Assembly (NCBI GenBank): GCA_028716965.1
Contig: JAQUOV010000004.1
Span: 8,377-72,376, forward strand
DNA from: Candidatus Omnitrophota bacterium
Lineage (GTDB): Bacteria; Omnitrophota; Gorgyraeia; Gygaellales; Profunditerraquicolaceae
Direction: 5' to 3'
DNA: 64,000 nt
Both the position numbers and the translations under genes were made by a program. The notes under the pieces were generated by a model that was not told the origin of the DNA, ran no database searches, and saw nothing but the letters and a program-made list of their open reading frames with translations. Positions 2,033 through 42,041 of this stretch are shown one piece after another (the first letter of the stretch is position 1; every line of letters begins with the position of its first letter).

Positions 2033-4972
2033 ATGCAGTATAAAATAGAAGTAGTGGATAAACCCGGTATTTTTGACGCCATCGGCCAGGGTGTAAGGAA
2101 GGATATTCTTGACCTGGGGATAAACAGCGTTAAAGAGGTCAAGTTCATCCAGTGCTATATCCTCGAGGGTAATCTTACCGAAAACCAAGCCATTACAATC
2201 TGCCGGGAGCTTTTAACGGATAAAGTAGCGCAAGAGTACAGGATTGTATCTTCTTCCGGAAAAGCCCCTCTTAAAGCCAATCACCCGGCCTTATCGGATA
2301 GACCGGTGCGCGCCTCTGCGCTGCAGCATATAGTAGAAATCGCTTATAACCCGGGAGTGATGGACCCTGTAGAAGCATCGGTATTAAAAGGTATCCGCGA
2401 CCTGGGGATATTGGGAGCCGAATCAGTTAAGACCGCCAAAAAATATATTCTTTACGGAAAACTTTCCGCATCACAGCTAAAGACCATCTCGGAAAAACTT
2501 CTCTATAATAAGCTTATTCAGCATATAGTTGGCCCATCTCTGCCGCAGGGCGATATTAAGCATCAGCCCGGGTACTATTTTAATTTAGTTACAGTGGAGC
2601 TGCTTAAGGCTACAGACGCACGGCTTTTGGAGATAAGCAAGAAAGGCCAGCTCTTCCTGAATTTAGATGAGATGCGCCGGATCCGTGATTATTTCCGTAA
2701 GCAAAAACGCCAGCCCGTTGATTGCGAGCTGGAGACGATCGCCCAGACCTGGTCCGAACACTGTTACCATAAGACATTCCGCGGCAACATCGCCTATAAA
2801 GAAAGCAGGGCCGTTCCCGCCTTAGGGAACATGTCTATTAAAGGCTTGCTTAAGTCCACGATCATGAAGGCGACTAAAGAGTTGAATAAGAGCTGGTGTG
2901 TTTCTGTTTTTAAAGATAACGCCGGGGTGATCCGGTTTGATGAAAAAAACAATATCTGTTTTAAAGTTGAGACGCATAACCATCCGTCGGCCCTGGAGCC
3001 GTTCGGCGGGGCAAATACCGGTATCGGCGGGGTAATCCGCGACCCCATGGGCACGGGAATGGGCGCCAAACCGATCTTAAACAGCGATATATTTTGTTTT
3101 GCGCCGCCGGACCTGGAGTTTAATAAAGTGCCTGCCGGCTCTTTGCATCCGAAGCGGGTGATGAAGGGCGTAGTAAGCGGCGTGCGCGATTACGGCAACA
3201 AGATGGGGATCCCTACGGTAAACGGCGCGATATTGTTCCATAAGGATTTCGCAGGGAACCCGCTGGTATATTGCGGCACAGTGGGGATCATGCCCAAAGA
3301 TAAATCTTTTAAGAAAACCAATCCAGGCGACCTGGTGGTTGTTGTGGGCGGAGCAACCGGAAGGGACGGTATCCACGGAGCGACTTTTTCTTCCGGAGAG
3401 CTGACCCATGAATCCGAAACCATCTCAAGCGGCGCTGTGCAGATCGGCAATCCCATCCAGGAAAAAAAGATACTGGATACTATTTTGCAGGCCCGCGACA
3501 AAAACCTTTATAGCGCAATTACCGATTGCGGAGCAGGAGGCTTATCCAGCGCGGTAGGAGAGATGGGGGCGGAATTAGGGGCTAAAGTTTACCTGGACCG
3601 GGTGCCTTTAAAATACTCCGGACTCTCTTATATGGAGATATGGATATCCGAATCGCAGGAGAGGATGGTATTGTCCGTACCTTGCGGCAACATAGATAAG
3701 TTGATTGAGTTATTTGCCAGCGAAGATGTTGAGGCTACGGTAATCGGAGAGTTTACTAATACCAAAAGGCTTGAGCTTTATTACGAAGATAATCTGGTTT
3801 GTGATTTAGATATGCATTTCTTGCATGACGGCATACCGCAGGTTACCAAAAAAGCAGTATACACGCAGCCCAGGCACAAAGAGCCAAAAATACCTCTAAA
3901 GAAAAATCTTGCCGCCGACTTATTGAAACTGCTTGCGCATTACGATATCTGTTCCAAGGAGTGGATAATCCGGCAATATGACCATGAGGTGCAGGGCGGC
4001 TCGGTGATCAAGCCTTTGACAGGCATTGTCAACGACGGACCCTCTGACGCCAGTGTCACCAGGCCTTTGTTTGGTTGCCGCAAAGGAATAATCATTTCAA
4101 ACGGCATAAATTTCCGTTTTGGTTTTATTGACCCTTACTGGATGGCAGCATCCTGCATCGATGAAGCGTTGCGCCAGATTATTGCAGTGGGGGGGTCGCT
4201 TGAGGAGGTGGCGATACTGGATAATTTCTGCTGGGGCAACCCGGATAAACCCGACCGTTTAGGCAGCCTGGTGCGCGCTGCTTACGGCTGTTATGATGCC
4301 GCTAAAGCATACGGCGTGCCTTTTATCTCCGGCAAAGACAGCCTTTATAATGAATTCAGCGTGCACGGCAGGTCAACGGCTATTCCCGGCACGCTGCTTA
4401 TTTCGGCAATCAGCGTGATGAAAGACATAAATAAATCCGTATCCATGTACGCAAAAGAACCGGGCAATCTGGTCTATATAGCGGGAAAGACCCGCGATGA
4501 ATTAGGCGGCTCGCATTATTATGATTTATATAACGCCATCGGCAACCAGGTGCCTAAACTTAAGTACCGGGAGTCAAAAAGAACATTTACTGCTTTGAGC
4601 AAGGCGGCAGAAAAAGGCCTGGTTGAGTCCATGCATGATTGTTCTGACGGAGGGCTGGCAGTGGCGCTTTCCGAGATGGCTTTTAGCGGAGGCTTGGGCG
4701 CTGAAATATTCTTATCCGAAGCGCCTTATGAATCGTCAAACCCGAGAAATGACTTCCTGCTTTTTTCAGAGTCCAACTCCCGTTTTGTGGTAGAGGTAGA
4801 GAGGAAGAATAAAGAAAGGTTTGAGAAAATATTAAAGGGCGCGGATTTCGGGCTTGCAGGATGCTTAACAGGCGGCAATAATTTCAAGATATACGGCTTA
4901 GACGGCAAGCTTTGCGTGGATGCAGATACGCGTAGATTGAAAGAAAGCTGGCAAAAACCTTTAAGCTGGTAA
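2033..4972 (+). CDS. purL: Phosphoribosylformylglycinamidine synthase, PurS-PurL fusion
   Basis: 979 aa. N-terminal ~80 aa has a PurS-like fold (MQYKIEVVDKPGIFDAIGQ...). Remainder is small-type PurL (AIR-synthase-related domains, GGAANTGIGG-like motifs). The glutaminase subunit PurQ is encoded separately downstream. Confidence 0.9.
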   Translation: MQYKIEVVDKPGIFDAIGQGVRKDILDLGINSVKEVKFIQCYILEGNLTENQAITICRELLTDKVAQEYRIVSSSGKAPLKANHPALSDRPVRASALQHIVEIAYNPGVMDPVEASVLKGIRDLGILGAESVKTAKKYILYGKLSASQLKTISEKLLYNKLIQHIVGPSLPQGDIKHQPGYYFNLVTVELLKATDARLLEISKKGQLFLNLDEMRRIRDYFRKQKRQPVDCELETIAQTWSEHCYHKTFRGNIAYKESRAVPALGNMSIKGLLKSTIMKATKELNKSWCVSVFKDNAGVIRFDEKNNICFKVETHNHPSALEPFGGANTGIGGVIRDPMGTGMGAKPILNSDIFCFAPPDLEFNKVPAGSLHPKRVMKGVVSGVRDYGNKMGIPTVNGAILFHKDFAGNPLVYCGTVGIMPKDKSFKKTNPGDLVVVVGGATGRDGIHGATFSSGELTHESETISSGAVQIGNPIQEKKILDTILQARDKNLYSAITDCGAGGLSSAVGEMGAELGAKVYLDRVPLKYSGLSYMEIWISESQERMVLSVPCGNIDKLIELFASEDVEATVIGEFTNTKRLELYYEDNLVCDLDMHFLHDGIPQVTKKAVYTQPRHKEPKIPLKKNLAADLLKLLAHYDICSKEWIIRQYDHEVQGGSVIKPLTGIVNDGPSDASVTRPLFGCRKGIIISNGINFRFGFIDPYWMAASCIDEALRQIIAVGGSLEEVAILDNFCWGNPDKPDRLGSLVRAAYGCYDAAKAYGVPFISGKDSLYNEFSVHGRSTAIPGTLLISAISVMKDINKSVSMYAKEPGNLVYIAGKTRDELGGSHYYDLYNAIGNQVPKLKYRESKRTFTALSKAAEKGLVESMHDCSDGGLAVALSEMAFSGGLGAEIFLSEAPYESSNPRNDFLLFSESNSRFVVEVERKNKERFEKILKGADFGLAGCLTGGNNFKIYGLDGKLCVDADTRRLKESWQKPLSW

Positions 4973-6428: not shown

Positions 6429-7884
6429 ATACAAGCGATGCCTGCCTGCCGACAGGCAGGAGCCAAAAGAGTATTGCGGGTTATTCGGGATAACTAATAA
6501 CAGGCAGGCAGTCTGGCTTACCTACCTTGGGCTTTTTGCCCAGCAGCACCGCGGCCAGGAGGCATGCGGGATCGTGGCGAATAACCAGGGGGTGCTTTCC
6601 ATCCATAAGAATATGGGGTTGGTCAGCGATGTATTCAGCGAGCAGGTGTTAAGCCGCCTGAAAGGGAATATAGCGGTGGGGCATGTGCGGTATTCTACTA
6701 CCGGCTCAAGCGTGTTAAAAAACTCCCAGCCGCTTTTGATTGACTACGCCAACGGCTCTATCTGTATCGCGCATAACGGCAACCTGGTGAATTCGCTTGA
6801 GCTGCGCCAGAAGCTTGAGAAAAGCGGTTCCATCTTTCAGACTACAACCGATTCGGAACTGGTCATCCATCTTATGGCGCGCAGCAATAAGCGCAGCCTG
6901 GAGGACAGCCTGGTTTATGCTTTAAAAAGGGTCAAAGGCGCCTATTCACTGGTATTGATGAACAGCAATTATTTAATCGGCGTAAGGGACCCGCACGGTT
7001 TCCGGCCGCTGGTTTTAGGGAAACTCGGCGCTTCATACTGCCTTGCTTCGGAGACTTGCGCTTTTGATTTGATCGGCGCTAAATTCGTGCGCGAGATTGA
7101 GCCCGGGGAGATAGTGCTGATTAATAACCAGGGTGATATAAAATCAATCAAGCCGAAAGAGCTGCTTGCCTGCCACCATTCGTTTTGTATCTTTGAGCAT
7201 GTTTATTTTTCCCGGCCGGATTCCAATGTCTTCGGCGAGACCGTGCATACTGTCCGGCGCAAGCTGGGCGCGCGATTAGCCAAAGAATACCCGGTAGAAG
7301 CTGATTTTGTGGTCCCGGTGCCGGACTCCGGGTTTTCAGCGGCCCTGGGCTATTCGCAGGAATCAGGTATCCCGTTGGAGATGGGGATCATCCGCAACCA
7401 TTATGTGGGCAGGACATTTATCCAGCCGGCGCAGGATTCCCGGGATATGGGGGTGCGGGTAAAGTTTAATATTTTAAAGGATATCCTTAAGGGCAAGCGC
7501 ATTATCGTAGTTGATGATTCTATTGTGCGCGGCACAACTTCAAAGATCCGCGTGCGCAACCTGCGTAAGGCCGGGGTAAAAGAGGTACATTTGAGGATCT
7601 CCTGCCCGGCGCACCGCTTTCCGTGTTTTTACGGGATTGATTTCCACCGCGCAAGCGAACTGATCGCAAATAAATACGATAGCCTGGAGAAGATCAGTAA
7701 ATATCTTGAGGTAGACAGCCTGGGATATTTAAGCTTAGAAGGGATGTTGGGCTGCCTTAAGCATCCTAAGGAAAGCTATTGCGCTTCATGCTGGACAGGA
7801 AAATACCCGTTAAGGCCGGAGAAGAGGCATAGTAAGTTTTCTTTAGAGAGAAGCTGCTGCGGACAGGGGGAGTTACAAGTATAA
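6409..7884 (+). CDS. purF: Amidophosphoribosyltransferase (propeptide-containing, Fe-S type)
   Basis: Ntn-hydrolase catalytic Cys in CGLFGI after a short propeptide. PRTase motif IIVVDDSIVRGTT. C-terminal Cys cluster (CASCWTGKYP) as in B. subtilis-type PurF. Start chosen at ATG 6409; the ORF is open from 6367. Confidence 0.88.
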   Translation: MLKKICEYKRCLPADRQEPKEYCGLFGITNNRQAVWLTYLGLFAQQHRGQEACGIVANNQGVLSIHKNMGLVSDVFSEQVLSRLKGNIAVGHVRYSTTGSSVLKNSQPLLIDYANGSICIAHNGNLVNSLELRQKLEKSGSIFQTTTDSELVIHLMARSNKRSLEDSLVYALKRVKGAYSLVLMNSNYLIGVRDPHGFRPLVLGKLGASYCLASETCAFDLIGAKFVREIEPGEIVLINNQGDIKSIKPKELLACHHSFCIFEHVYFSRPDSNVFGETVHTVRRKLGARLAKEYPVEADFVVPVPDSGFSAALGYSQESGIPLEMGIIRNHYVGRTFIQPAQDSRDMGVRVKFNILKDILKGKRIIVVDDSIVRGTTSKIRVRNLRKAGVKEVHLRISCPAHRFPCFYGIDFHRASELIANKYDSLEKISKYLEVDSLGYLSLEGMLGCLKHPKESYCASCWTGKYPLRPEKRHSKFSLERSCCGQGELQV

Positions 7885-7898
7885 AATAAGTATTTAGT

Positions 7899-7971
7899 GT
7901 TTTACGGGTCCTGTCGAGCCTTGTTTTCGCCGCACATTGCGGCTCAAATCAAGTCTCGCCACCCGTAAAAC
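7899..7971 (+). repeat. Family B 73-nt nested-hairpin repeat, copy 1 (purF-purM intercistronic)
   Basis: Outer stem GTTTTACGGGT/ACCCGTAAAAC, second stem CGAGCCTTG/CAAGTCTCG, inner hairpin GCCGCAcatTGCGGC. Second copy at 19476-19548. Confidence 0.7.
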
Positions 7972-10393: not shown

Positions 10394-10613
10394 CATTAAT
10401 GAATCTGTCGTTTTGCTCGCTCAGGTCGATTTTTTAACGCCAATGCTCTTTCGCATTTCGGTGGCTGCGGAACTTGCGGTATTTGCTCTTGCAAATACCG
10501 CTCAAGCATCCTCGCCATCCCCGTTTTGTCGCTTCGCTCCACGGGGATACCCGAAATGCTCAAGCTCCATTGGCTAAAATCGACATTCACTCGCAATAAC
10601 GCCAGATTCATTT
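10394..10613 (+). repeat. Family C MITE-like element, copy 1 (about 220 bp, about 45-bp imperfect TIRs)
   Basis: Head AATGAATCTGTCGTTTTGCTCGCTCAGGTCGATTTTTTAACGCCAATG is the inverted complement of tail CATTGGCTAAAATCGACATTCACTCGCAATAACGCCAGATTCATTT. Central hairpin TCCCCGT...ACGGGGA. About 85% identical to the copy at 36728-36944. Confidence 0.7.
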
Positions 10614-10624
10614 AGGCGTATTTA

Positions 10625-10705
10625 AGAGATAAGTTGTATTGTGCACATTTGCCGAAAATTTTCTAATGCGCGCTCCGCCAAAACCGCAAAACTTGATGAT
10701 TTTTA
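10625..10705 (+). repeat. Partial family D element (right-half fragment)
   Basis: GCACATTTGCCGAAAATTTTCTAATGCGC matches the D motif GCACACTTTTGCCGAAAATCTTCTAATTGTGCC seen in copies at about 29860-30085 and 54165-54395. Confidence 0.5.
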
Positions 10706-10750: not shown

Positions 10751-11479
10751 ATGGATGATGGTCGTAAGTTTTTGAGATATATTGTTCCTGCTTTTGTTTA
10801 TTTTGTTGAAGTAATTTTATTTCTATCTTTATTTTTAGTTTTTAATCCTTCAATATGCACATTTAACTTATCAAACGATCTAATCAACGAAAATAATATT
10901 TTAGAAATCATTATTATGGGTTTTATTGTAAGTGGAGGATTAGGTGCTTTTTTTTGTCAAATATACCATGTAATCTATTCATTTCACGTAGTTGACCTTC
11001 GAAATTCCATAATAGATGCTATAGAAAAAGGATGTTTAAAAGTAATGGAGAGGGGCAAAGCTTTAGAAGCTAAGAACATAAAGAATTGTAACAAAAGAAT
11101 TTTCTTAATGATTGATACTGTTTTGTGGAGTCAGCGTAGTGAACTTAACAATAAAATTAAAGGAGCAAAAGATAGGACTCAAACATACCATGATCATTTG
11201 CATGGTATAGGTGGAGTAATTGTTGCTACTTTTTTTGCTTTTGTAAGTTGGTTCTTCATAATCGGATACATAGCAGAAGAAATGTGTCTATTCAATCTTG
11301 CGTATTGGTTTATTATTTGTTCCTGGGTTGTATTATTTATTATCTTCTTTCTTGGATACTTTAGAATAAGGGAACAACTAGAATTTCATCGCTATTCTAT
11401 TTTAATAGATGTTTTGAAAGATGATTTCTTTTGGAATAATAAGAAACCTGCGGAGGTAGATATTCCTTGGGTTAAGTAA
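10751..11479 (+). CDS. Hypothetical 4-TM membrane protein, compositionally foreign (about 30% GC)
   Basis: 242 aa, two hydrophobic helices at each end, central soluble region with HDHLHGIGG. Strongly AT-rich codon usage unlike all flanking genes. Lies directly after the C/D repeat pile-up. Confidence 0.55.
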   Translation: MDDGRKFLRYIVPAFVYFVEVILFLSLFLVFNPSICTFNLSNDLINENNILEIIIMGFIVSGGLGAFFCQIYHVIYSFHVVDLRNSIIDAIEKGCLKVMERGKALEAKNIKNCNKRIFLMIDTVLWSQRSELNNKIKGAKDRTQTYHDHLHGIGGVIVATFFAFVSWFFIIGYIAEEMCLFNLAYWFIICSWVVLFIIFFLGYFRIREQLEFHRYSILIDVLKDDFFWNNKKPAEVDIPWVK

Positions 11480-15410: not shown

Positions 15411-16468
15411 GTGCGACAAAAATAATAAAAATCAATCCGGTTTTGCCTGAAGAGGAGTATATCAGCCAGGCAGCTAAGGTTATTGCAGATGGCGGTCTGG
15501 TGGTTATCCCCACGGAGACTGTTTATGGTATTGCGGCCAATGCCTTGGATAAAAATACTTTGGATAAACTTTATGAGATTAAAAAGCGGTCAAAGGATAA
15601 GCCTTTTGCTTTGCTCATTGCGGATAAGATTAAGGTTGATGAACTTGCAAGCGATATACCGGTTGCTGCGTATAAATTAATGCATAAATTCTGGCCCGGG
15701 CCTTTGACAATTTTATTGAAGGCGCCAAGCGGCGGTAAGGTGGGGTTGCGTATGCCGGATGACCAGGTTGCTTTGAAGATTGTTGAGCGTTCAGCTGTTC
15801 CCGTAGCCTGTCCTTCGGCAAATATTTCGGGTTCTGCTGCCCCGGTTAACTTTGCAGAGGCGATTAAGGATATGAATGGCTTGGTAGAGCTGGCGCTTGA
15901 CGCCGGGGAAGCAAAAATAGGGATGGAATCCACTATTGTAGATTTAAGCGTTGAGCCGCTTAAAATAACAAGGAGCGGCTCAATAAAAGATGAAGAGATA
16001 AACGCGGTTGTAAAATCCAGGACCGTACTCTTTATCTGCACGGGAAACTCCTGCCGTTCGGTAATGGCCGAGGCGTATTTAAAAAAGCTCCTGGAAGAAC
16101 AGAAAAGGAGCGATGTGGAGGTGTTCTCCGCGGGGGTAATGATCCTTGCCGGGCTTGGCGCAAGCACAGAGACCAGGCAGGTATTGAAGAACGAAGGCAT
16201 GGATGTAAGTGCTCACCGTTCGCAAAGATTGACCAGGGAGATGGTGGACAGGTCCGATATCATACTGGTAATGGAGCCCATGCATGAGAAAAGGGTGCTT
16301 GAGCTTGCGCCGGAAGCAATGAACAGGCTTTTTTTATTGAAGGAATTTGCTAAAATGGATGATAATGATTTGGATATTGTTGACCCTATAGGAGGGTCGC
16401 TTGAGTTTTACGAGGATACTTTTCGCACAATTAAAGATGCCGTAGAAAGGATAAGTAAAATCATATGA
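15407..16468 (+). CDS. Threonylcarbamoyl-AMP synthase (TsaC/YrdC) fused to low-molecular-weight protein phosphatase (YwlE-like)
   Basis: N-terminal YrdC/Sua5 domain (VIPTETVYGIAANA). C-terminal LMW-PTP domain with P-loop CTGNSCRS and DP motif. Matches B. subtilis ywlC + ywlE fused into one ORF, followed by rpiB-glyA as in Bacillus. Confidence 0.85.
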   Translation: MSATKIIKINPVLPEEEYISQAAKVIADGGLVVIPTETVYGIAANALDKNTLDKLYEIKKRSKDKPFALLIADKIKVDELASDIPVAAYKLMHKFWPGPLTILLKAPSGGKVGLRMPDDQVALKIVERSAVPVACPSANISGSAAPVNFAEAIKDMNGLVELALDAGEAKIGMESTIVDLSVEPLKITRSGSIKDEEINAVVKSRTVLFICTGNSCRSVMAEAYLKKLLEEQKRSDVEVFSAGVMILAGLGASTETRQVLKNEGMDVSAHRSQRLTREMVDRSDIILVMEPMHEKRVLELAPEAMNRLFLLKEFAKMDDNDLDIVDPIGGSLEFYEDTFRTIKDAVERISKII

Positions 16469-16926: not shown

Positions 16927-18170
16927 AACATTTAAAACAGATTGACCCGGAGATTTACGCAGCGATTAAGAAAGAGATGCAGCGCCAGGATGAGAACCTT
17001 GAGTTGATCGCCTCGGAGAACTTTGCTTCTTTGGGAGTGTTGGAGGCCCAGGGCTCTGTGTTGACCAATAAATATGCCGAGGGATATCCCGGCAGGCGCT
17101 GGTATGGCGGGTGTGAATATGTAGATACCGCAGAGAGCCTTGCTATTGAACGGGCCAAAGCAATATTCGGCGCAGAGCACGCCAATGTCCAGCCGCATTC
17201 AGGTTCGCAGGCGAATATGGCGGTGTATTTTGCGGCGATAAAACCGGGAGATACGGTCCTGGCTATGGATTTAGCTGCCGGAGGCCACCTCACCCACGGC
17301 CACCCGCATAATTTCTCCGGGATGTTTTATAAGATCGTCGGTTACGGCGTGGACAGGAAAAGCGAAACCCTGGATTATGATGCCATCCTTGAGCTTGCCA
17401 AAACACATAAGCCGAAGATGATACTGGCAGGCGCCTCGGCGTATCCAAGGACAATTGATTTTAAGAAGTTCCGCCAGATCGCTGACAGCGTCGGGGCGTA
17501 TCTATTCGTGGATATGGCGCATATCGCAGGGCTGGTCGCTGCCGGGGTTCATCCTTCTCCCGTACCTTACGCGGAGTTTGTTACCTCTACTACGCATAAG
17601 ACCTTGCGCGGCCCGCGCGGCGGGTTTATCCTTTGCAGGAAAGAGTTTGCCAAGAAAATAGACAGCCAGATCTTCCCCGGGATACAGGGGGGGCCGTTGA
17701 TGCATGTGGTTGCCGCCAAAGCCGTGGCATTTGCCGAGGCAATGACGCCGGAGTTTAAGCAATACCAGGCCCAGCTGGCTGAAAATGCCAGGGAGTTAGC
17801 AAAGGCTTTGGAGAAAAAAGGCTTTCGCATCGTATCCGGAGGCACGGATACGCATTTAATGCTCGTAGATCTGAATGCCAAAAATATTACCGGCTCCGAT
17901 GCTTCAAGGATTTTAGGGCAGGTAAATATTACGGTAAACAAGAACCTTATACCTTTTGATCAGAAGTCTCCGCTTGTAACAAGCGGTATCCGCCTGGGCA
18001 CGGCGGCAGTAAGCACGCGCAAGATGAAAGAGGCGCAGATGCAGAAGATCGCCGGTTTAATCAACGATGCGCTGGAAAACCAGGCCGATATGAATAAATT
18101 AACTGAAATCAAAAAGGAAACGATCGCTTTAGCCAGAAAGTTTCCGCTATATCCGGAGCTATTGAAATAA
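16923..18170 (+). CDS. glyA: Serine hydroxymethyltransferase
   Basis: 415 aa. PLP-site [19 protein letters not shown] and [10 protein letters not shown] motifs. Confidence 0.92.
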
Positions 18171-18251
18171 TATGAACCCCTCGCCTTCTGTAAATTTAAC
18201 TATTGAAGCCATGGGGTTTAATGAGCTGACTAAGGAAGAAGGTGCGGGATG
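18171..18251 (+). repeat. Family A junction element, copy A1 (short derivative of the GIY-YIG cassette)
   Basis: Left arm TATGAACCCCTCGCCTTCTGTAAATTTAAC, right arm GAAGGTGCGGGATGA. Contains in-frame micro-[29 protein letters not shown] whose TGA overlaps ATG 18249 of the downstream gene. Confidence 0.75.
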
Positions 18252-18710
18252 AAAAAGAGCAGAACTATACATAAGCGCCCTACGTGGGATGAATATTTCC
18301 TGGAGATGGCAGGCTTGGTTGCCAAAAGGTCAACCTGCCTGCGCCGCTCTGTTGGTGCGGTATTGGTAAGAGAAAAAAGAATTTTGGCTACCGGTTATAA
18401 CGGCGCTCCCAGCGGTTTGAAGCACTGTGTTGAAATCGGCTGTATACGCCAGCAGTTAAAGATACCTTCCGGAGAACGCCATGAATTATGCCGCGCCTTA
18501 CATGCAGAGCAGAACGCGCTTATCCAGGCCTGCCTGCACGGCATAAGCGTAAAAGGCGCAACTTTATATGCCACTAATCAGCCGTGCGTTATCTGCGCCA
18601 AGATGCTCATTAACGCCGGGATAAGGGAGATCGTAATTGCCGAAGGCTACCCGGACAAAATGGCGATGAGCTTCTTAAGGCAGGCAAAGATAAGAATAAG
18701 GAAAATATGA
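18249..18710 (+). CDS. Deoxycytidylate (dCMP) deaminase, ComEB-like
   Basis: 153 aa. CDA-fold zinc motifs HAEQNA and PCVICAKML; N-terminus KRPTWDEYF typical of dCMP deaminases. Stop TGA lies inside the left arm of element A2. Confidence 0.8.
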
Positions 18711-19011
18711 ACCCCGCACCTTCTTTAAATTCAATAATGTACCATGCGTATCTTCTTAAAAGTAAAAAGAATGATACTTTTTATATTGGATATACAAATA
18801 ATATTGAAAGAAGGTTAAAAGATCATAGCTCCGGGATAGTTGAATATGCAGGGAAATATGTGCCTTGGGAAATAGTGTATTATGAAAGCTCTATTTCCTT
18901 GGTTGATGCTAATCAAAGGGAGAGATCTCTTAAATCTTTTGGGAGGGCATATTCAGGTTTAAAACTTAGAATTAAAAATAGCTTGAATAAGAAAGAAGGT
19001 GCGGGGTGAAG
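18704..19011 (+). mobile_element. Family A full-length element: TIR-flanked YhbQ-like GIY-YIG cassette (putative autonomous copy)
   Basis: Left end ATATGAACCCCGCACCTTCTTTAAATTCAA and right end TTGAATAAGAAAGAAGGTGCGGGGTGAAG are inverted complements (16-bp perfect core ACCCCGCACCTTCTTT). The ends enclose a 100-codon GIY-YIG ORF. Confidence 0.75.
18707..19009 (+). CDS. GIY-YIG nuclease superfamily protein (UPF0213/YhbQ-like)
   Basis: 100 aa. [32 protein letters not shown] matches the GIY-(x10)-YIG plus conserved R/H catalytic region of YhbQ-like proteins. Conserved EGAG near the C-terminus as in E. coli YhbQ. ATG overlaps upstream TGA (ATGA); its TGA overlaps the nrdR GTG (GTGA). Confidence 0.8.
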
Positions 19012-19473
19012 TGTCCGTTTTGCGGATATAAAGAGGATAAGGTCGTGGACTCCCGCGCTACAGCCGAAGAATCGGCAGTCAGGCGCAGAAGGGAATGCCT
19101 GAAATGCGGCAAGCGTTTCACTACTTATGAGTATGTTGAAGAGGTCTCTTTGTTAGTGATCAAGAAAGACGGCCGCAGGGAGGCCTTTGACCGTAAAAAG
19201 ATCTTAGCCGGTATAATCCGCGCCTGCGAAAAGCGTCCGGTGAGCGTGGAAAAGATGGAAGGGGTAGTTGTCCAGGTTGAGCATGCCATCCAGAAGAAAA
19301 GTGACCGCGAGGTTTTGTCCAGCAGGATAGGGGAGCTGGTTATGGAGAAGCTTAAGCAGATTGATGATGTTGCTTATGTGCGCTTTGCCTCGGTCTATAG
19401 GCAGTTTAAGGACGTGGGGCAGTTTATGGTGGAGTTGAGGGATATTTTGGGCAAAGATAAGAAGAAGAAATAG
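19006..19473 (+). CDS. nrdR: Transcriptional repressor NrdR
   Basis: 155 aa. N-terminal zinc ribbon MKCPFCG...CLKCGKRFTTYE plus ATP-cone; GTG start supplied by the element A2 right arm. Confidence 0.9.
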   Translation: MKCPFCGYKEDKVVDSRATAEESAVRRRRECLKCGKRFTTYEYVEEVSLLVIKKDGRREAFDRKKILAGIIRACEKRPVSVEKMEGVVVQVEHAIQKKSDREVLSSRIGELVMEKLKQIDDVAYVRFASVYRQFKDVGQFMVELRDILGKDKKKK

Positions 19474-19475
19474 GC

Positions 19476-19548
19476 GGTTAGCGGGTCCTGGCGAGGCTTG
19501 TTTTCGCCGCGCACCGCGACTCAAATCAAGCCTCGCCACCCGCTAACT
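19476..19548 (+). repeat. Family B 73-nt nested-hairpin repeat, copy 2 (after nrdR)
   Basis: Outer stem GGTTAGCGGGT/ACCCGCTAAC, second stem GCGAGGCTTG/CAAGCCTCGC, inner CGCGcacCGCG. Same 73-nt length and architecture as 7899-7971, with compensatory substitutions. Confidence 0.7.
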
Positions 19549-20028: not shown

Positions 20029-21477
20029 ATGGAGCTTGGATTTAACGAGAAAGATAAAAGTATTTTAAGGCCGGTTTATGATTTTGCCAAAACCAGGAAG
20101 GTAAAATTATACCTTGTGGGCGGGGCGCTGCGCGATTTAATCTTAAGACGCCGGAAGAGTAATCCGGATTTTGATTTTTGCCTGTGCCGCGGGGCGATAA
20201 ATTTCGGCCGTAAGTTAGCCGCGAAACTAAGGGCAGGATTTGTAGTCCTGGATGAGGAGCACGCTGCCTGCCGGCTGGTAAAGAAGATCGGCGATAAGGT
20301 TTATACTTTTGATTTTACGGATTTCCGCGCCAGGACCCTGGAAAAAGACCTTTTGCACCGGGATTTTACCATAAACTCCATGGCCGTGGAGTTTAAAGAT
20401 GTCTTTAGCGGAGAAGATTTAAGCACATTAATTATTGATCCTTATTCCGGCAGGCAGGATATTAAGCGCAAGATCATCCGTGCCTGCGGCAGCAACTCTT
20501 TCAAAGAAGACCCTTTGCGGATCCTGCGCGCTTTTAGCTTTAGCTGTATGCTGGATTTTGCCCTGGATAAAGAAACATTGCGCCTGGCAAAAAAAGATAA
20601 ACATTTGATCAGCGATGTATCAAGCGAGCGCATCCGGGAAGAGTTATTCAAGATCTTTGACAGCCTTACGGCCGGTGCTTCTTTAGCTGTGTTGGACAAG
20701 CTTAAGATTTTAGAGATTATTTTCCCCGAGATAAAGCCCATGCGCGGTATCGGCCAGGGGCCTTATCATCACCTGGACGTCTGGCAGCATACCCTGGAGA
20801 CCTTAAGCCAGTTTGAGTTATTATTGAGCTCCTTTAAACAGAACCCTGAAATAAGCAAGTATCTGGAAGAGGAGGTCGCCGGACAGCGCAAAAGGTCAAG
20901 CCTTTTGAAGCTGGCCTGTATTTTGCACGATGTAGGTAAGCCGAAAGCCTTGCGCAGGGAAAAGGGCAAGATTATCTTCCATGGCCATGAAAGAATAGGC
21001 CTGGGAATAACCCGTATGATTTCCCGCAGGCTGAAGTTATCCAATGACGAAACCCGCTCCCTGGAAAGGATTGTACTCTGGCATTTAAGGCCGGGATACC
21101 TGGCGGACTGCATTCGGCCGACTGAGCGGGCGATCTTCAGGTATTTTCGCGATACCGGGGATGATGCCCTGGCAGTGCTTTTGTTATCGCTGGCTGACCA
21201 GCGTGCTACCAAAGGCCCGCTGACCACAGCGCTTTCGCGCGTACGCCATGAGAAAACAACAAAGGCGTTAATTAAAAGGCTGTTAAAACAAAAAGACGAA
21301 AAGGAATTAACCCGCCTTTTAAACGGCAATGACCTGATGCGTAAATTCAAATTAATGCCTTCGCCGCTGATCGGCAAAGTGCTCGCGGGCCTGGAGGAGG
21401 CGCAGGCCATCGGCAGGATTAAGAATAAAGAGCAGGCTTTTAAACTGGCAGCTTCCATAATTAAACAAAAAAAATGA
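20029..21477 (+). CDS. cca: CCA tRNA nucleotidyltransferase / poly(A) polymerase family with HD domain
   Basis: 482 aa. Pol-beta NTase head motif LVGGALRDLIL. HD motif region ILHDVGKP...HGHE. Confidence 0.85.
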   Translation: MELGFNEKDKSILRPVYDFAKTRKVKLYLVGGALRDLILRRRKSNPDFDFCLCRGAINFGRKLAAKLRAGFVVLDEEHAACRLVKKIGDKVYTFDFTDFRARTLEKDLLHRDFTINSMAVEFKDVFSGEDLSTLIIDPYSGRQDIKRKIIRACGSNSFKEDPLRILRAFSFSCMLDFALDKETLRLAKKDKHLISDVSSERIREELFKIFDSLTAGASLAVLDKLKILEIIFPEIKPMRGIGQGPYHHLDVWQHTLETLSQFELLLSSFKQNPEISKYLEEEVAGQRKRSSLLKLACILHDVGKPKALRREKGKIIFHGHERIGLGITRMISRRLKLSNDETRSLERIVLWHLRPGYLADCIRPTERAIFRYFRDTGDDALAVLLLSLADQRATKGPLTTALSRVRHEKTTKALIKRLLKQKDEKELTRLLNGNDLMRKFKLMPSPLIGKVLAGLEEAQAIGRIKNKEQAFKLAASIIKQKK

Positions 21478-26320: not shown

Positions 26321-26737
26321 ATGAAATCCTACACAGGCTACCTTTATTTTAATACTGCTAAAAAACAGGAGTTTATCAATATCACTGACCAGGTGGAAGA
26401 GGCCTTGCGTAAAAGCAAGATCAAAGAAGGGTTGTGTCTGGTTAACTCTATGCATATAACCGCAAGCGTTTTTATCAATGACGATGAAAGCGGGCTGCAT
26501 AAAGATTTCTCCGTCTGGCTTGAGAAGCTGGCGCCGTTTGGGAAAGACAAGTATCAGCATAATTTAACCGGCGAAGACAATGGGGACGCGCATTTGAAGC
26601 GTACGGTTATGGGCAGGGAGGTAGTGGCGGCGGTGACGGAGGGGAAACTGGATTTCGGGCCGTGGGAACAGATCTTTTACGGAGAGTTTGACGGGCAGAG
26701 GAAGAAGAGGGTGTTAATAAAAATAATAGGTGAATAA
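26321..26737 (+). CDS. YjbQ/UPF0047 family protein (secondary thiamine-phosphate synthase-like)
   Basis: 138 aa. ITDQVEEAL...[27 protein letters not shown] matches the YjbQ family. Confidence 0.8.
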
Positions 26738-26921
26738 TTTGCGGCTGCTTTGGTTTGTTTTCTGTATACTGGCCTCGGGGTCCTGCCGCCGAAGTCTCCC
26801 CATTCCTGCGGGCAAGTTTGTCCTCGGAACGGGGATGCCCCTCTTTGGCGTCACCCCTCGGCAGGCAATATGAATCAAGCACCTTTTATTTCTAATATTT
26901 TGATTAATACAGGAGGAATTT

Positions 26922-27851
26922 GTGAGGATAAAGAATACGGAGATTAAGGTTGTGCTGGGGGATATTACGGAGATAAGGGCGGATGCGATTGTGAATGCCG
27001 CTAACAACAAGCTGGTTATGGGCGGGGGAGTAGCCGGGGTAATTAAGAAAAAAGGCGGCAAGGTGATTGAAGAGGAGGCGCTTAAGAAGGGGCCGATAGG
27101 TATCGGAGAGGCGGTTGAGACTTCCGCCGGAGAGCTGGCGGCAAAATATGTGATTCATGCGGCGACCATGGGAATGGATTTTAAAACAGATGAAGTGATG
27201 ATCCGTAATGCCTGCAGGAGTTCCTTAAAGCTGGCCGAAGAATTGAAGATTGGTTCTGTTGTTTTTCCGGCTTTGGGGTGCGGCACAGGAGGCTTTCCGC
27301 TTTTGGCTTGCGCAAAGATTATGGCGCAGGAAGTGCTAAGACACCTGCGGGAAGAAAATACCTGTTTAGATGAGATTGTTTTCTGCCTTTATACTCAAGA
27401 TGCGTTTACGGTTTTTAATAAAGGCGTTTTAGGGTATTTGGAATACGTGACTACAAAGTTATCCTCGGGCCCGTTTGTGACGGTAGATGCGATTATTGAA
27501 TTGCCCGAGGGGATTGTAATTATCCAGCGCAGCAACCCGCCGTTTGGCTGGGCGCTTCCGGGAGGGTTTGTGGATTACGGCGAAAGCCTGGAGCAGGCGG
27601 TAAAAAGAGAGGCTAAAGAAGAAACAAACCTGGATTTAATTAACATCAAGCAATTCCGCACTTATTCAAATCCCAAGCGCGACCCAAGATTCCACACTAT
27701 CGGTACGGTATTCATTGCTAAAGCAAAAGGTAGGCCTAAGGCAGGGGATGACGCGGCAGGTTTAAAAATTATCAAACCTGCCGAGATAGAGAAGCTTGAT
27801 TTTGCTTTTGACCACAAAGACATCCTTCATGATTACCTCAAAACAAAATAG
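26922..27851 (+). CDS. Macro domain (ADP-ribose/O-acetyl-ADP-ribose binding) fused to Nudix hydrolase
   Basis: 309 aa, GTG start after GGAGGA. N-terminal macro motifs [21 protein letters not shown] and HAATMG. C-terminal Nudix box [29 protein letters not shown]. Confidence 0.8.
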
Positions 27852-27923
27852 GGACGTTTCTTGACCCAATCGGAGAAGTGTCCCCATAGGGGACACTTCT
27901 CCCTTTAGCTTGAGAAACGTCCC
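27851..27923. terminator. Family E 73-nt palindromic hairpin between convergent genes (likely bidirectional terminator), copy 1
   Basis: GGGACGTTTCTTGACCCAATCGGAGAAGTGTCCCC pairs with GGGGACACTTCTCCCTTTAGCTTGAGAAACGTCCC. Located between the Macro-Nudix stop (27851) and the helicase stop (27929). Confidence 0.6.
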
Positions 27924-27928
27924 TAATA

Positions 27929-29809
27929 TTAACCTTCGCGGAGTTGTTTTTCGGCGTCAACAATATCGCGGTTTATTACGCGGATAGTTTCTTTTATTTT
28001 GTCTTTAAGCAGGTAAGAGGCAATCGGCGCCTGCGAGATCTCCCTTAAAACCTGCACGCTCATCCTGAAATAACGCACTACCTCGCCTTCGTCGCAATCA
28101 GTCATCTGCAGGGTTTTACCGAAGTTTGTCCCGCGCAGCCATGCCTCCATGCTGGAACAGAGATGAAAATAGGGCAGCTTACTGAAGGGGTAGATCTTAT
28201 AGCGGCGCTCCTTGTCTTTTAATCTGTCATATGTTTCTTCGCAGGTACGTTTGAGCGCGCGGCTGGATTTAGATATACTTGACGGCATGCGCTGATTTTT
28301 GCGCGGCTCAAAAACAACCGCGGAAGCCACTACGCCTAATTCAAATTCATCCAGCTGCTCAAGTATATTTTGGTCATATAATTCCGCCAGGACCAATTCA
28401 TATCCGTAAATAGTTTTAGCGAACCTTCCTTTTTCGGAAAGTTTCCCTTCATGGATGTAACCCAATTCTTTGAGCAGCCTTAGTTTTGCGTCCAGCAGGT
28501 TTAATGCCTGTTTTTGCTCATTCTTGCGCGACTGATAATAATGCAAAGAGAGGGGGTAGATTTTAAATAAATCCTCCTGGTATTTTTCGTAAAGGTTAAG
28601 AATAGTGGCATAAGAGGTGTTCAGCTGGCTCTTTACCTCTTCGGGCTTGCCGAAGATTATCCTGCTGACCTCTTCAAAATTTATCCTCTGCGGGTTAACC
28701 CGCGTGTAAACAAACCCTTCTTTATCTATCCCGCGCCTTCCGGCCCTGCCGGCCATCTGATAAAAGTCGCGCGTTTTCAGGTTGCGCACGTAAGTGCCGT
28801 AAAATTTACGCAGGCCGTCAAACATTACCGAGCGGCTGGGCATATTGATCCCCAGGGCAAAGGTTTCGGTAGTAAAAATAACTTTGAGCAGGCGGCTGGT
28901 AAAAAGCCGCTCGATTACCTCCTTTAAGGTAGGCAGCATCCCGGCATGATGATAGGCAATGCCGCGCTGTACCAGGGGATAGAGGATCTGCGCCGACTGT
29001 TCATGTTTTAAATTAAACCGTTCAAGCAGGTCTTCGTACATCTGGGTGATCGCGCGGGATTCTTTGGCGTCCAGGAATTTAAATCCGTATAAATCCTGGG
29101 CTAATTCCTCCGCGCGTTTGCGGCTGAAGACAAAATATATCGCCGGCAGCCCGTCGTTTGTACGCAGGTAGTCGATCAGTGAATTCAACCTGTTGGGTTT
29201 AGCGGAGCGCAGGCGTTTAAGGCGCTCAATTTTATCCACGATTTCATTCTGGCACTGGAAAAGGAAATGCAGCGGCACCGGCCGGTTTTCTTCAATGACT
29301 ACTTTTATGGCTTTATCGTGGATAGATTCGATCCAGCTGGCGAATTGTTTGATATTGGGGATGGTCGCGGATAACCCCAGCAGGTTCATCTGTTTAGGCA
29401 GGAAGATCAATGATTCCTCCCAGACCGTGCCGCGTTCGGGGTTATCAATGTAATGGATCTCGTCAAAGATGATCCAGGAGTATTTATCAAGGCTCTCTGG
29501 CTCATCCAGTATTTTGTTGCGGAAGATCTCGGTAGTCATGATCAGTACCGGGGCCTGGGGATTAATGGAAACGTCGCCGGTAAGGATGCCGATATTGTCC
29601 TGGAACTGGGCCTGGAAGTCGCGGAACTTCTGGTTGGAGAGAGCTTTAATCGGCGCGGTATAAATTACCCCCAGGTTATTGCGGATAGAGTTACTGATAA
29701 TGTACTCGGCAATCGCTGTTTTACCCGCCCCTGTAGGAGCAGAGACAATTACGGAGTGGCCCTGGTTGATATGGTCAATGGCTTCCTGCTGGAACCGGTC
29801 GTAAATCAT
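27929..29809 (-). CDS. Ski2-like DEXH-box helicase (DEIH)
   Basis: 626 aa. Walker A APTGAGKT, DEIH box, SAT motif, QMAGRAGRRG motif VI; overall Ski2/Hel308-like core. The only confident minus-strand gene in the window. Confidence 0.8.
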   Translation of the reverse strand: MIYDRFQQEAIDHINQGHSVIVSAPTGAGKTAIAEYIISNSIRNNLGVIYTAPIKALSNQKFRDFQAQFQDNIGILTGDVSINPQAPVLIMTTEIFRNKILDEPESLDKYSWIIFDEIHYIDNPERGTVWEESLIFLPKQMNLLGLSATIPNIKQFASWIESIHDKAIKVVIEENRPVPLHFLFQCQNEIVDKIERLKRLRSAKPNRLNSLIDYLRTNDGLPAIYFVFSRKRAEELAQDLYGFKFLDAKESRAITQMYEDLLERFNLKHEQSAQILYPLVQRGIAYHHAGMLPTLKEVIERLFTSRLLKVIFTTETFALGINMPSRSVMFDGLRKFYGTYVRNLKTRDFYQMAGRAGRRGIDKEGFVYTRVNPQRINFEEVSRIIFGKPEEVKSQLNTSYATILNLYEKYQEDLFKIYPLSLHYYQSRKNEQKQALNLLDAKLRLLKELGYIHEGKLSEKGRFAKTIYGYELVLAELYDQNILEQLDEFELGVVASAVVFEPRKNQRMPSSISKSSRALKRTCEETYDRLKDKERRYKIYPFSKLPYFHLCSSMEAWLRGTNFGKTLQMTDCDEGEVVRYFRMSVQVLREISQAPIASYLLKDKIKETIRVINRDIVDAEKQLREG

Positions 29810-29859: not shown

Positions 29860-30085
29860 TATTCGCTTTCCGTCTTTCGCTTCGGCACGAAGATTTTCGC
29901 TGTGTGCTTCGGTTTACGTCTCGTTTCGGCAGCGCAGGTTCCTTACGCAATAAGGCATTGCCTGCACTCGCCGTAAAGCCTTGCACACTTTTGCCGAAAA
30001 TCTTCTCATTGTGCCTCCAGCAAAAGACGGAAATCTCATGGCGAGAAACAAGCCAAGGCAGCTCCGATAGCTAAAATCATTGATT
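29860..30085 (+). repeat. Family D MITE-like long-hairpin element, copy 1
   Basis: TTCCGTCTTTCGCTTCGGCACGAAGATTTTCGCTGTGTGC ... GCACACTTTTGCCGAAAATCTTCTCATTGTGCC ... CAAAAGACGGAA; arms are imperfect inverted complements. Homologous to 54165-54395. Confidence 0.65.
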
Positions 30086-32934: not shown

Positions 32935-33025
32935 CGGATGGTCCTTAAGCCAAGGGAAAAGTGTCCTTTGTAGAGGAAGTTATCCACTACGGGGACACTT
33001 CTCCGATTGGCTCAAGAAACGTCCC
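32935..33025 (+). repeat. Family E hairpin, degenerate copy 2 (after spoVG)
   Basis: Right half GGGGACACTTCTCCGATTGGCTCAAGAAACGTCCC (32991-33025) is the inverted complement of the E1 left arm. Left partner CCAAGGGAAAAGTGTCC is degenerate. Confidence 0.5.
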
Positions 33026-33035
33026 TGCTTAAAAG

Positions 33036-34731: not shown

Positions 34732-36732
34732 ATGTCTAAAAATCTGGTTATCGTAGAGTCGCCTACCAAGGCTAAAACCATAAGCAAGATCCTGGGCCAG
34801 GATTTTAGCGTGGTTTCCTCCATGGGGCATATTATTGACCTGCCGCAGAAAGAATTGGGCGTAGATGTAGATAATAATTTCAAGCCGGAATATGTGATTA
34901 TCCCGGCCAGAAAGAAATTGTTGACCCAGCTTAGAAAAGAGGCCAAGTCAAAAGAGAAGATATATGTGGCAACCGACCCTGACCGGGAGGGTGAGGCAAT
35001 CGGCTGGCAGATAAAAGAAAAGGTCTTTAAGGGCAAGGATGTCCTGCGGGTAAGTTTTCATGAGATTACCCCGCATGCGGTAGGGGAGGCCTTTAAATCC
35101 GCACGTGAGTTTGACGCCAATATGATTGAGGCCCAGGTCGGCCGCAGGGTGCTGGACCGTATCGTCGGATATTTCTTGAGCCCTTTACTTTGGAAAAAAC
35201 TTGCCCGCGGTTTAAGCGCAGGGCGCGTGCAATCCGTAGCCTTAAGGCTGATCGTGGAACGGGAACGCCAGATCCAGGCCTTTACCGCCAGCGAATATTG
35301 GGAGATTATCGCGGAGTTATTTAAGCCTAAGGTCTTCGGGGAGAGTAGTTTTTGCGCTAAACTTGAAAAGATAGACGGTGAAAAAGCGCAGATTAAGACC
35401 CAGGATGAAGCGCAAGCGATCGTAGAGCAGCTTAAGGAAAAAGAGTTTAAGGTCCTGGAGGTTAAGCAAACAGAAAAGAAACGCTATGCCCCGGCTCCAT
35501 TTATCACCAGCACTATGCAGCAGGAGGCCTTTAATAAGCTTAAGTTTAATGCCTCCAAAACCATGATGGTGGCGCAGCAGCTTTACGAGGGTATTGATAT
35601 CGGCGGGGATAACCCCCTGGGCTTGATTACTTATATGCGTACGGATTCTCCGAATACCGCTCCGGAGGCAGTTGCCGAAGTGCGTGAGCATATCGGCAGG
35701 GTCTTCGGCAAGGATTTTGTCCCGGAGAAACCGAATTTTTTCAAGGCTAAAAAATCAGCGCAGCAGGCGCATGAAGCGATCCGGCCAAGCTATGTTTCGC
35801 GTTCTCCGGAAAGCATGAAAGATTTCTTAAGCCACGACCAGTTTCGTTTATATGAGCTCATTTATAACCGTTTCCTGGCCAGCCAGATGAAACCCGCTGA
35901 ATTCCTGGCTACTTCGGTAGATATCTGCGCGGATAAATATTTGTTTGCGGCTAACGGAAGCCATTTGCTTTTTGAGGGGTTCCTGGCTGCTTACAACAGG
36001 ACCGAAGAGGAGGAAAAGGATGACGAGGAGGAGAAAGAAAAAAACAAGAATGTGGTCCCTCCTTTAGAACAAGGAGAGGTTCTCGGTCTGACTAAGCTTG
36101 TGCCCTCCCAACATTTTACCAAGCCGCCTCCGAGGTTTTCGGACAGCTCTTTAGTCAAGGCCCTGGAAGAGGACGGGATCGGCCGGCCTTCAACCTACGC
36201 GCCGATTATTTACACGCTCATTCTGCGCGATTATGTGCGCAGGATTAAAGGCTATCTTAACCCCACGGAGCTTGGTTTCAAGGTCAGCGATATGCTGGTA
36301 GAATATTTCCCGAAGATTATAGATGTCAAGTTTACCGCGCTTATGGAGGATGAGCTGGATGAGATTGAAGAAGGCAGGCTTAAGCGCGTGGAGGTATTAA
36401 AAGAATTCTACGCCCCTTTTAAAGAGAGCCTGGATTTTGCCCAGGCGAATATAAAGAAGGAGGTTATTACTACCGATCAGATTTGCGATAAATGCGGCAA
36501 GCCTTTTATCATAAAGTGGGGCCGGCGCGGTAAATTCCTGAGTTGTTCGGGTTTTCCCTCCTGCAAGAATTCCAGGTCTATTACTTCCGGTGTCAAATGC
36601 CCGGAAGAAAATTGCGGCGGGGAATTGATCGAGCGCAGGTCAAAGCGCGGTTTTTTCTATGGTTGTTCAAACTTTCCGAAATGCACCTTTACCTCGCGTA
36701 CGTTGCCGCAGGATAAGGAAGATACGCAATGA
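34732..36732 (+). CDS. topA: DNA topoisomerase I
   Basis: 666 aa. TOPRIM N-terminus MSKNLVIVESPTKAKTISKILG, active-site Tyr region, C-terminal Cys4 zinc ribbons (CDKCGKP, CPEENCGG). Confidence 0.92.
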   Translation: MSKNLVIVESPTKAKTISKILGQDFSVVSSMGHIIDLPQKELGVDVDNNFKPEYVIIPARKKLLTQLRKEAKSKEKIYVATDPDREGEAIGWQIKEKVFKGKDVLRVSFHEITPHAVGEAFKSAREFDANMIEAQVGRRVLDRIVGYFLSPLLWKKLARGLSAGRVQSVALRLIVERERQIQAFTASEYWEIIAELFKPKVFGESSFCAKLEKIDGEKAQIKTQDEAQAIVEQLKEKEFKVLEVKQTEKKRYAPAPFITSTMQQEAFNKLKFNASKTMMVAQQLYEGIDIGGDNPLGLITYMRTDSPNTAPEAVAEVREHIGRVFGKDFVPEKPNFFKAKKSAQQAHEAIRPSYVSRSPESMKDFLSHDQFRLYELIYNRFLASQMKPAEFLATSVDICADKYLFAANGSHLLFEGFLAAYNRTEEEEKDDEEEKEKNKNVVPPLEQGEVLGLTKLVPSQHFTKPPPRFSDSSLVKALEEDGIGRPSTYAPIIYTLILRDYVRRIKGYLNPTELGFKVSDMLVEYFPKIIDVKFTALMEDELDEIEEGRLKRVEVLKEFYAPFKESLDFAQANIKKEVITTDQICDKCGKPFIIKWGRRGKFLSCSGFPSCKNSRSITSGVKCPEENCGGELIERRSKRGFFYGCSNFPKCTFTSRTLPQDKEDTQ

Positions 36733-41997: not shown

Positions 41998-42041
41998 AGC
42001 CTGCGGGCTAATGTCCGGGTTAACTTTCGGGGCAGGTTAAT

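Follow-up and report, generated by a model that had tools for sequence, protein, structure and literature searches.

Nested intercistronic hairpins in Omnitrophota: a probable superfamily of small palindromic repeats resembling miniature mobile DNA

The nested 73-nt hairpins found between operon genes of a Candidatus Omnitrophota genome probably belong to a superfamily of small, non-coding palindromic repeats that is confined to one lineage and is of the MITE, ERIC and REPIN kind. The superfamily is previously undescribed; the kind of element is expected and the host is new. The hairpins behave like miniature mobile DNA rather than like a dedicated regulatory RNA, and they probably also act as operon-internal mRNA hairpins. 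A host-selected, orientation-independent hairpin, serving mRNA protection or perhaps as a DNA-level signal, is a serious rival, if an unlikely one. The phylum Omnitrophota is uncultivated, its cells are mostly very small, and to our knowledge almost nothing is known of its non-coding DNA or mobile elements. All of the sequence evidence comes from metagenome-assembled genomes (MAGs) and metagenome contigs; related sequences are cited below by locus handles (L001 and so on), and the window is the whole 64-kb stretch of DNA that was analysed. Three copies and two conserved modules in the window were as follows.

7899–7971, + strand: copy 1, subfamily A, between the purF stop (7884) and the purM start (8001)
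7905–7916, + strand: 5' half of the base module of copy 1, CGGGTCCTG plus the 1x1 position, with its 3' partner CACCCG at 7960–7965
7929–7945, + strand: apical module of copy 1, a TC/TC 2x2 internal loop round a G+C hairpin (TC-GCCGC...GCGGC-TC)
19476–19548, + strand: copy 2, subfamily A, 2 nt past the nrdR stop codon (19471–19473) and 40 nt upstream of a BFN-domain gene (19588)
26771–26866, + strand: third copy, type C, between the UPF0047 gene (26321–26737) and the Macro-NUDIX gene (26922–27851)

The preliminary description had reported copies 1 and 2 as a pair of equal length with a common core, and both were found in the window sequence at these positions, each 73 nt long. The neighbours were confirmed as purF and purM for copy 1 and as nrdR and the gene for a bifunctional-nuclease (BFN)-domain protein, followed by a CCA-adding enzyme gene, for copy 2. 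Each half of the shared core occurs exactly twice in the 64 kb with up to three mismatches allowed, against an expectation of 0 from shuffles. Copy 1 has the outer stem GTTTTACGGGT/ACCCGTAAAAC with a 5' bulge CCT, the middle stems CGAG/CTCG and CTTG(TTT)/(AAA)TCAAG, a TC/TC internal loop and the apical hairpin GCCGCA-cat-TGCGGC. Copy 2 has the outer stem GGTTAGCGGGT/ACCCGCTAAC with the same CCT bulge, a perfect 11-bp middle stem and the apical hairpin CGCG-cac-CGCG. Each folds as one long nested hairpin, with RNA fold energies of −35.7 and −45.6 kcal/mol for copies 1 and 2 (z = −7.6 and −7.3) and 0 of 200 shuffles folding as well as either; the reverse strands and the DNA folds were as good or slightly better. 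Matched substitutions had been claimed for both the outer and the second stems. For the outer stems the claim holds, with three true compensatory pairs (T-A to G-C, T-A to A-T and A-T to G-C). The second stem does differ between the copies, but not by compensatory swaps: the mismatches T.C and C.T of copy 1 are Watson–Crick pairs in copy 2, and double changes appear there only with further copies, as C-G to U-A in L012 and as replacement of the whole stem in L017 and L041.

A covariance-model search, as suggested in the preliminary description, was combined with exact-pattern scans and placed the element at about 12 separate intergenic positions. An exact scan for the internal-loop core in 185,579 species-representative genomes gave five true loci, four labelled Omnitrophota and one Planctomycetales, together with 11 chance matches, and JGI metagenomes scanned with a second exact pattern added more loci. 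Under the covariance model, built from seven copies, canonical elements score 85–102 bits (copy 1, 101.7; copy 2, 93.8), and divergent members missed by the exact patterns score 37–72 bits (L019, L017 at 2024–2104, L020 at 3735–3812 and L041 at 15451–15531). The model found no further canonical copy in the window. The occupied junctions include purF|purM, nrdR|BFN, argF|argG, DUF362|mtnA, malQ|PP-loop ATPase, ABC|oxidoreductase and PNP|IF-2B, among others.

The hosts are closely related Omnitrophota MAGs and metagenome contigs, and the genomes that could be placed by a PurM or PurD orthologue are all close relatives, with PurD 80–89 % and PurM 81–87 % identical. Copy number is low, at two to three per 64 kb in the window and one exact-core locus per representative genome, and no copy was seen in 21 kb of the closest relative (L054). 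A custom base-module scan of about 450 kb of related DNA gave no new sites; its criteria were too strict for types B, C and D, so that the density of the superfamily is only roughly estimated. A phage, plasmid or viral origin was considered and rejected: blastn of phage and plasmid collections returned no match to the element, and two IMG/VR pattern matches were not members. One MAG, CAYRUB010000009.1 (L013/L040), is recorded as 'uncultured Planctomycetales'. It is syntenic with the Omnitrophota window and its PurM and PurD are 83–85 % identical, and to judge from this synteny and identity the label looks wrong.

A lack of covariation in further copies was one of two outcomes that the preliminary description had set as refuting; the stems do covary in them. 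Over 14 distinct sequences, in an alignment fitted to the model, 94.9 % of pair cells were standard pairs and 11 of 28 pairs had double-sided changes; 0 of 500 shuffles reached the observed pairing and covariation, and pairing fell to 30–45 % when the 3' partners were slid by 1–3 columns as a control. The middle stem differs throughout in L017b and L041 (CTTGGATTG/CAATCCAAG and CCTGGACTG/CAGTCCAAG versus CGAGCCTTG/CAAGTCTCG), with the unpaired motifs unchanged. This covariation shows that the hairpin is maintained; it is no proof by itself of an RNA nature or of selection on RNA, because DNA palindromes covary too.

Each member folds as a single long, imperfect hairpin, 73 to about 190 nt in length (198 nt in L063). 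Its consensus ends, TTAGCGGGTCCTG ... CACCCGCTAA, form a stem with a fixed 3-nt CCT bulge, and the interior differs by subfamily, such that A', B and D have only these ends in common with A. As terminal inverted repeats, TTAGCGGGT(CCTG) ... (C)ACCCGCTAA, they recur at unrelated sites across A, A', B and D, and the outermost 5–7 nt vary (TTTTAC, TTTGC, CCGC). The base module consists of GGGT paired to ACCC, then the 5' CCT bulge, a G-C pair and the 1x1 position. The string GGGTCCTG is by alignment column conservation the most conserved across subfamilies A, A', B, C and D, and is common to L017b, L020b, L036/L045, L040n, L063, L066 and the third window copy. The apical module is conserved in A and A', and in L063 about 110 nt extra are nested there. 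Fold z-scores of the elements range from −4.3 to −7.6, with only −2.9 for the 198-nt element of L063.

The third window copy, type C, shares only the inner GGGGTCCTG...CACCCC of the ends. Its base module reads GGGGT, bulge CCT, G-C pair and C.T mismatch ... CACCCC, with a TC/TC loop in the outer stem, and its interior is unrelated to that of A. It would belong to the superfamily by base-module architecture alone, because it is a single copy among the sequences examined and its fold z-score is only −1.5 for a 126-nt segment.

When orthologous spacers of close relatives are compared, a given spacer may have or lack an element, carry it in inverted form or hold a member of another subfamily in its place. 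At purF|purM, the window, L013/L040 and L027 carry an A element; the site is empty in L034/L054 and L039, where the genes overlap by 4 nt (ATGA), and in L041, which has a 36-nt hairpin-free spacer. In L036–38 and L045–50 the same site holds hairpin B, with the base TTTGCGGGTCCTGCC...GTCACCCCAAAA and the downstream spacer as at A sites. At nrdR|BFN, A is found in the window and L025 (which has a G-C to C-G swap relative to copy 2), A' in L041/L042 and B in L040; the outer stems are alike (GGTTAGC, GGCTAAT, GGTTGGC) and the interiors differ. The B interiors at nrdR|BFN in L040 and at purF|purM in L045 are 96 % identical, with different outer stems. The nrdR|BFN site is empty, with a 40-nt spacer, in L054, the closest relative by PurD (89 %). 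The phylogenetic distribution is patchy, since this genome lacks the element and less closely related ones have it, and it calls for precise loss or lateral exchange of the spacer. At PNP|IF-2B, L020 has an 85-nt insertion, and in L058, L063 and L066 the stop lies at or near the start (TAA-ATG). The spacer upstream of PNP holds an A-like element in L020, a long A' with about 110 extra nt at the TC/TC loop in L063 and type D in L066/67, the latter two both in the opposite orientation.

Filled and empty orthologous alleles were thus observed at three sites, which is the mobility criterion for MITEs. The elements sit in short spacers that separate co-directional genes, and the stop codon of the gene upstream is usually only a few bases away. 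Over 1.66 kb, L032 and L012 are collinear and 82 % identical, and here the element is inverted in place while being 94.8 % identical. Element identity is 90–98 %, against 80–88 % for flanking coding DNA and 75–80 % for adjacent spacer. The second refuting outcome of the preliminary description was that the element is a fragment of a larger insertion sequence (IS), which the further copies do not support: similarity among non-orthologous copies ends at the hairpin, so that the element is not a piece of a larger IS.

In L040, at about 7860–7900 on the minus strand, what may be an isolated 5' half of the element (TTTACACGGGTCCTGGCGAATCTTGCCTCTCGCAGC) adjoins a Fic-domain gene that is absent from the window synteny; a 3' half was not recognisable. 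This fragment may be what is left of a copy that decayed or was interrupted.

Seven sites are co-oriented with the flanking genes, six occurrences are antisense and one site is in a divergent spacer, with about one-third of sites antisense; L020 carries two copies 900 bp apart in opposite orientations. Antisense copies score 72–98 bits in the canonical DNA sense and, where obtained, 25–43 bits on the reverse strand, so that the asymmetric motifs are kept in DNA terms and not in transcript terms. There was no wobble bias for either strand, the stem mismatches being four G-T and seven A-C, counts that are uninformative on strand. A scan with 4227 Rfam covariance models at the gathering threshold returned no match in the window and five related loci, and at E<=10 only chance miRNA-precursor-like matches of at most 17 bits were seen, against thresholds of 57–73. 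The preliminary description had offered two interpretations. The REP-like intercistronic element is borne out as a dispersed intergenic palindrome with compensatory pairing. Selection on a strand-specific RNA is not, given the in-place inversion, the antisense placement, the lack of wobble bias and the lack of an Rfam match.

In particular, a riboswitch, a small self-cleaving ribozyme or an sRNA gene is very unlikely. RNAs of these types can also be dispersed short conserved structures, and such a reading would account for 73 nt of conserved structure in which unpaired nucleotides are invariant and stems covary, beside several metabolic genes (purF/purM, argF/argG, mtnA). However, orientation to genes varies, the copies lie in unrelated gene contexts, close relatives do without the element at the site, and the interior is replaceable by the unrelated hairpins B, C and D with only the base kept. 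The element is moreover a single unbranched hairpin, without the junction or pseudoknot typical of known ribozymes. Strand-specific RNA is argued against because the elements are dispersed, filled or empty, invertible, alike only at their ends, able to hold nested inserts and indifferent to the direction of transcription. A hammerhead was rejected, as the string CUGNNGAG is not conserved as a CUGANGA box. K-turns need tandem G.A pairs following the bulge; on reading the sequence, a K-turn was rejected on either strand, with no such pairs at the required place.

A broader host function deserves more weight, although we regard it as doubtful. The hairpin would then be a cis-acting element of intercistronic mRNA selected for operon regulation, as a barrier to 3' exonucleases, a place where RNase III/E processes the mRNA or a lineage-specific RNA-binding protein attaches, or a means of translation uncoupling, and would have spread or been converted only secondarily. 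All copies lie in transcribed spacers, nearly always between co-directional genes, often 0–15 nt from the stop codon, with a separate SD and start codon further downstream. Both strands form a very stable hairpin; the CCU bulge and the UC/UC loop are kept while the stems covary, as in protein-binding RNAs. The element is better conserved than the neighbouring spacer, and such conservation could alternatively reflect host-level selection on an RNA or DNA signal. The few copies fit a selected host element equally well. Against this, antisense copies (L015, L019, L020a, L032, L063, L066) keep the DNA sense of the motifs, so that their transcripts carry the complements; at a shared site the element has been flipped in place, and neither strand favours G-U over A-C. 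In the closest relatives these operon junctions function without the element, and no Rfam family matches it.

A factor-independent terminator or attenuator between cistrons might be suspected from a strong G+C-containing hairpin right after a stop codon, and is hardly probable here. The tails of the two copies are TAATCAAG and TATATTTC; there is no T-run past the stem on either strand, so the element is not an intrinsic terminator, and a terminator scan called none at copy 1 or 2. The downstream genes purM, BFN, argG and mtnA are also tightly linked in the operon, overlapping or abutting the upstream gene in relatives.

An integron-like or Xer-like recombination site, that is, an attC-type folded site marking gene cassettes, is the least probable reading that we weighed. 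The imperfect palindrome is of attC-like size with conserved extrahelical bases and a variable centre, its ends GTTAGC...GCTAAC resemble GTTRRRY, and different interiors occur at one site. In attC sites, R'' (RYYYAAC) stands at the 5' end and R' (GTTRRRY) at the 3' end. The motif order here is reversed, with GTTAGC at the 5' end and GCTAAC at the 3' end. The neighbours are conserved housekeeping operon genes in fixed order rather than cassettes. No integron integrase (IntI) lies nearby, and the window's single tyrosine recombinase gene, 17 kb off, is of the ordinary XerC/D type. Translation was likewise discounted: no reading frame is common to the copies, and as regards a coding or readthrough peptide, the two window copies share their frame with the upstream stop by chance, the frame in L001 differing from both.

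Returning to the reading as a mobile palindromic repeat, the conserved asymmetric ends would be the recognition site of a trans-acting transposase or recombinase working on DNA. The ends are read in this way because the properties of the element match those of palindromic repeats of the MITE, ERIC and REPIN kind. The putative enzyme would probably act on the extruded or single-stranded hairpin, and selection for recognition, together with copying or conversion from other copies, may hold the elements at 90–98 % identity while genes stand at 80–88 %. Once inserted, an element would be co-transcribed with the operon in either orientation as a hairpin of −35 to −50 kcal/mol, which may keep 3' exonucleases away from the upstream cistron and let neighbouring genes be translated independently. 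Such a role in mRNA would be a side effect or an exaptation and not the cause of the sequence conservation.

Neither a transposase or parent IS with matching ends nor a Y1-transposase domain was found among the roughly 20 window ORFs scanned, of about 60 likely genes. No consistent direct repeat marks a target-site duplication at the hairpin in 16 copies, and comparison of filled with empty alleles at three sites gave none either, with junctions that are not base-precise. A 2-nt TA hidden within the stem is possible for TTAGC-type copies and is absent in the TTTGC and CCGC types. A more specific and more speculative proposal, which we think improbable, is that GGGTCCTG with its 3-nt bulge, paired to CACCC, forms the landing pad of a putative hairpin-specific DNA enzyme of Omnitrophota that inserts, flips and swaps the hairpin 'cassettes' A, A', B, C and D at the same operon junctions. 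If true, this would be a new type of single-hairpin mobile element without target duplication or, alternatively, a host-domesticated system tuning operon expression by hairpin exchange.

The window genome has acquired several other small inserts relative to its closest relative, L054. A second repeat family was found with a longer version as follows.

18165–18253, 47705–47793, 55364–55452 and 58009–58097: second repeat family, about 84–89 nt
18702–19011: 300-nt version of the second family, with an ORF at 18707–19009 (100 aa)

The second family has the inverted ends CCCC(G/T)C(A/G)CCTTC ... GAAGGTGCGGG(G). An 84-nt element with the ends CCCCGCACCTTC...GAAGGTGCGGGG is inserted between the SHMT and dCMP deaminase genes in the window genome. 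Compared with the empty site of L054 (..AAATAATATGAAAAAG..), the copy at 18165–18253 is an insertion flanked by duplicated ATGAA. This copy forms an in-frame mini-ORF (ATG AAC CCC ... GGA TGA) and preserves translational coupling because its stop overlaps the ATG of the next gene. A similar retention of translational coupling has been described for mycobacterial MIRUs (PMC3184786). The 300-nt insertion has the same ends as the 84–89-nt family and lies exactly between the dCMP deaminase gene and nrdR, with overlapping stop and start on both sides; its 100-aa ORF had no NCBIfam match. In L054, L040, L041 and L034 the deaminase gene and nrdR overlap directly and this ORF is absent. Insertion of small elements is active in the lineage, because the same genome has other small repeat families, one of them with the ATGAA duplication.

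Several further repeats were noted. A family of long near-perfect palindromes (AGGGACGTTTCT..GGGGACACTTCTCC..) is represented at 27850–27925 and 32950–33030, and related short GGGACTGTCCC-type palindromes lie in intergenic spacers of the clade (L020 at 3697–3727, L039 at about 20030–20060 and L058 at about 720–745). Two copies of a repeat of about 200 nt, 83–94 % identical, are at 10398–10597, upstream of an ORF without a Pfam match (10751–11479), and at 36728–36928, upstream of the XerC/D-type gene (36971–37840). A family of about 180 nt (29865–30045 and 54188–54368, plus 10639–10683) contains TTTTGCCGAAAAT(C/T)TTCT(A/C)AT with the inverted partner GAAGATTTTCGC, and recurs in intergenic spacers of relatives (L063 at about 2090–2260, L066 at about 2200–2340). 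Nearly all sizeable ORFs of the window are on the + strand, with exceptions at 27929–29809 and 41559–42407. Over the full 64 kb, neither an RNA gene nor a riboswitch was called by the Rfam scan at the gathering threshold.

A repeat superfamily is now defined for this group, together with a covariance model and distinct end motifs. It can be used in the annotation of MAGs, in avoiding spurious ORF calls across the hairpins and in tracking strain-level variation. The re-use of the same junctions by different subfamilies in both orientations amounts to a natural experiment on the entry of palindromes into tightly packed, coupled operons. Discovery of the mobilising enzyme could bring to light a DNA transposase that recognises hairpins and has unusual properties.

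Several known classes of palindromic repeat invite comparison. REP sequences and BIMEs are 20–40 bp long and tagged with GTAG or CGTC (Di Nocera et al. 2013, PMC3733652). The Omnitrophota element is like them in lying between unidirectionally transcribed ORFs downstream of coding regions, in being plausibly transcribed with a role in mRNA stabilization, and in the different arrangement of orthologous spacers among strains. It differs in its length of 73 nt or more, in its low copy number and in having no tetranucleotide tag, GTAG or CGTC occurring in 1 of 16 copies, as expected by chance.

REPINs are REP doublets that form hairpins and are mobilised by RAYT transposases (Bertels & Rainey 2011, PMC3116915). 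Each consists of two inverted copies of a 20–40-nt REP, usually with a GTAG tag, and there are usually tens to hundreds per genome beside a single RAYT gene (PMC3116915). The likeness is in a hairpin-forming extragenic unit of about 70–110 nt predicted to fold in single-stranded DNA or mRNA, in compensatory stem changes, in vertical persistence in a lineage and in a non-autonomous nature without coding capacity. The Omnitrophota element, in contrast, has no GTAG/CGTC tag and few copies, and its arms are not separable REP units: they are imperfect inverted repeats that fold, are not recognisable as stand-alone REPs, and no clear singlets were seen.

MITEs are defined as short (<200–400 bp), non-coding and folding into a long hairpin (PMC3184786). 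The present elements agree with MITEs in length, lack of coding, hairpin, shared terminal inverted repeats, and filled and empty sites, and depart from them in the flanking target-site duplication. Correia elements (CREE/NEMIS) of Neisseria are 104–157 bp long with 26-bp terminal inverted repeats and a TA duplication, and have an IHF site, promoters and hundreds of copies (PMC3184786). With these and other MITEs (RUP, Nezha) the Omnitrophota element has in common terminal inverted repeats round a non-coding core, subtypes with the same ends and other interiors, presence or absence between close strains, and insertion beside or between genes with co-transcription as a hairpin. It differs from Correia elements in TIR-like ends of only about 10–13 nt, in its few copies and in that no target duplication or parent IS was found.

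ERIC/IRU elements of Enterobacteriaceae are imperfect palindromes of about 127 bp, classed as MITEs, and the ERIC-type elements of Photorhabdus and Xenorhabdus have TA flanks and target duplications (PMC3184786). The Omnitrophota element is about half as long (73 nt), has no sequence similarity to ERIC/IRU, belongs to another host phylum and, unlike the ERIC-type elements, showed no duplication; its interior is also exchangeable between subfamilies that share only ends of about 10–13 nt. Both are long imperfect palindromes of modest copy number in transcribed intergenic regions. Their sequence is highly conserved among related species, the sites that they occupy vary from genome to genome, and they are found in both orientations. 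Both have longer variants by internal insertion (here L063, B and D) and can act as an mRNA hairpin. By analogy of behaviour, ERIC/IRU is the closest known counterpart of the Omnitrophota element, with REPINs and Correia-type MITEs next.
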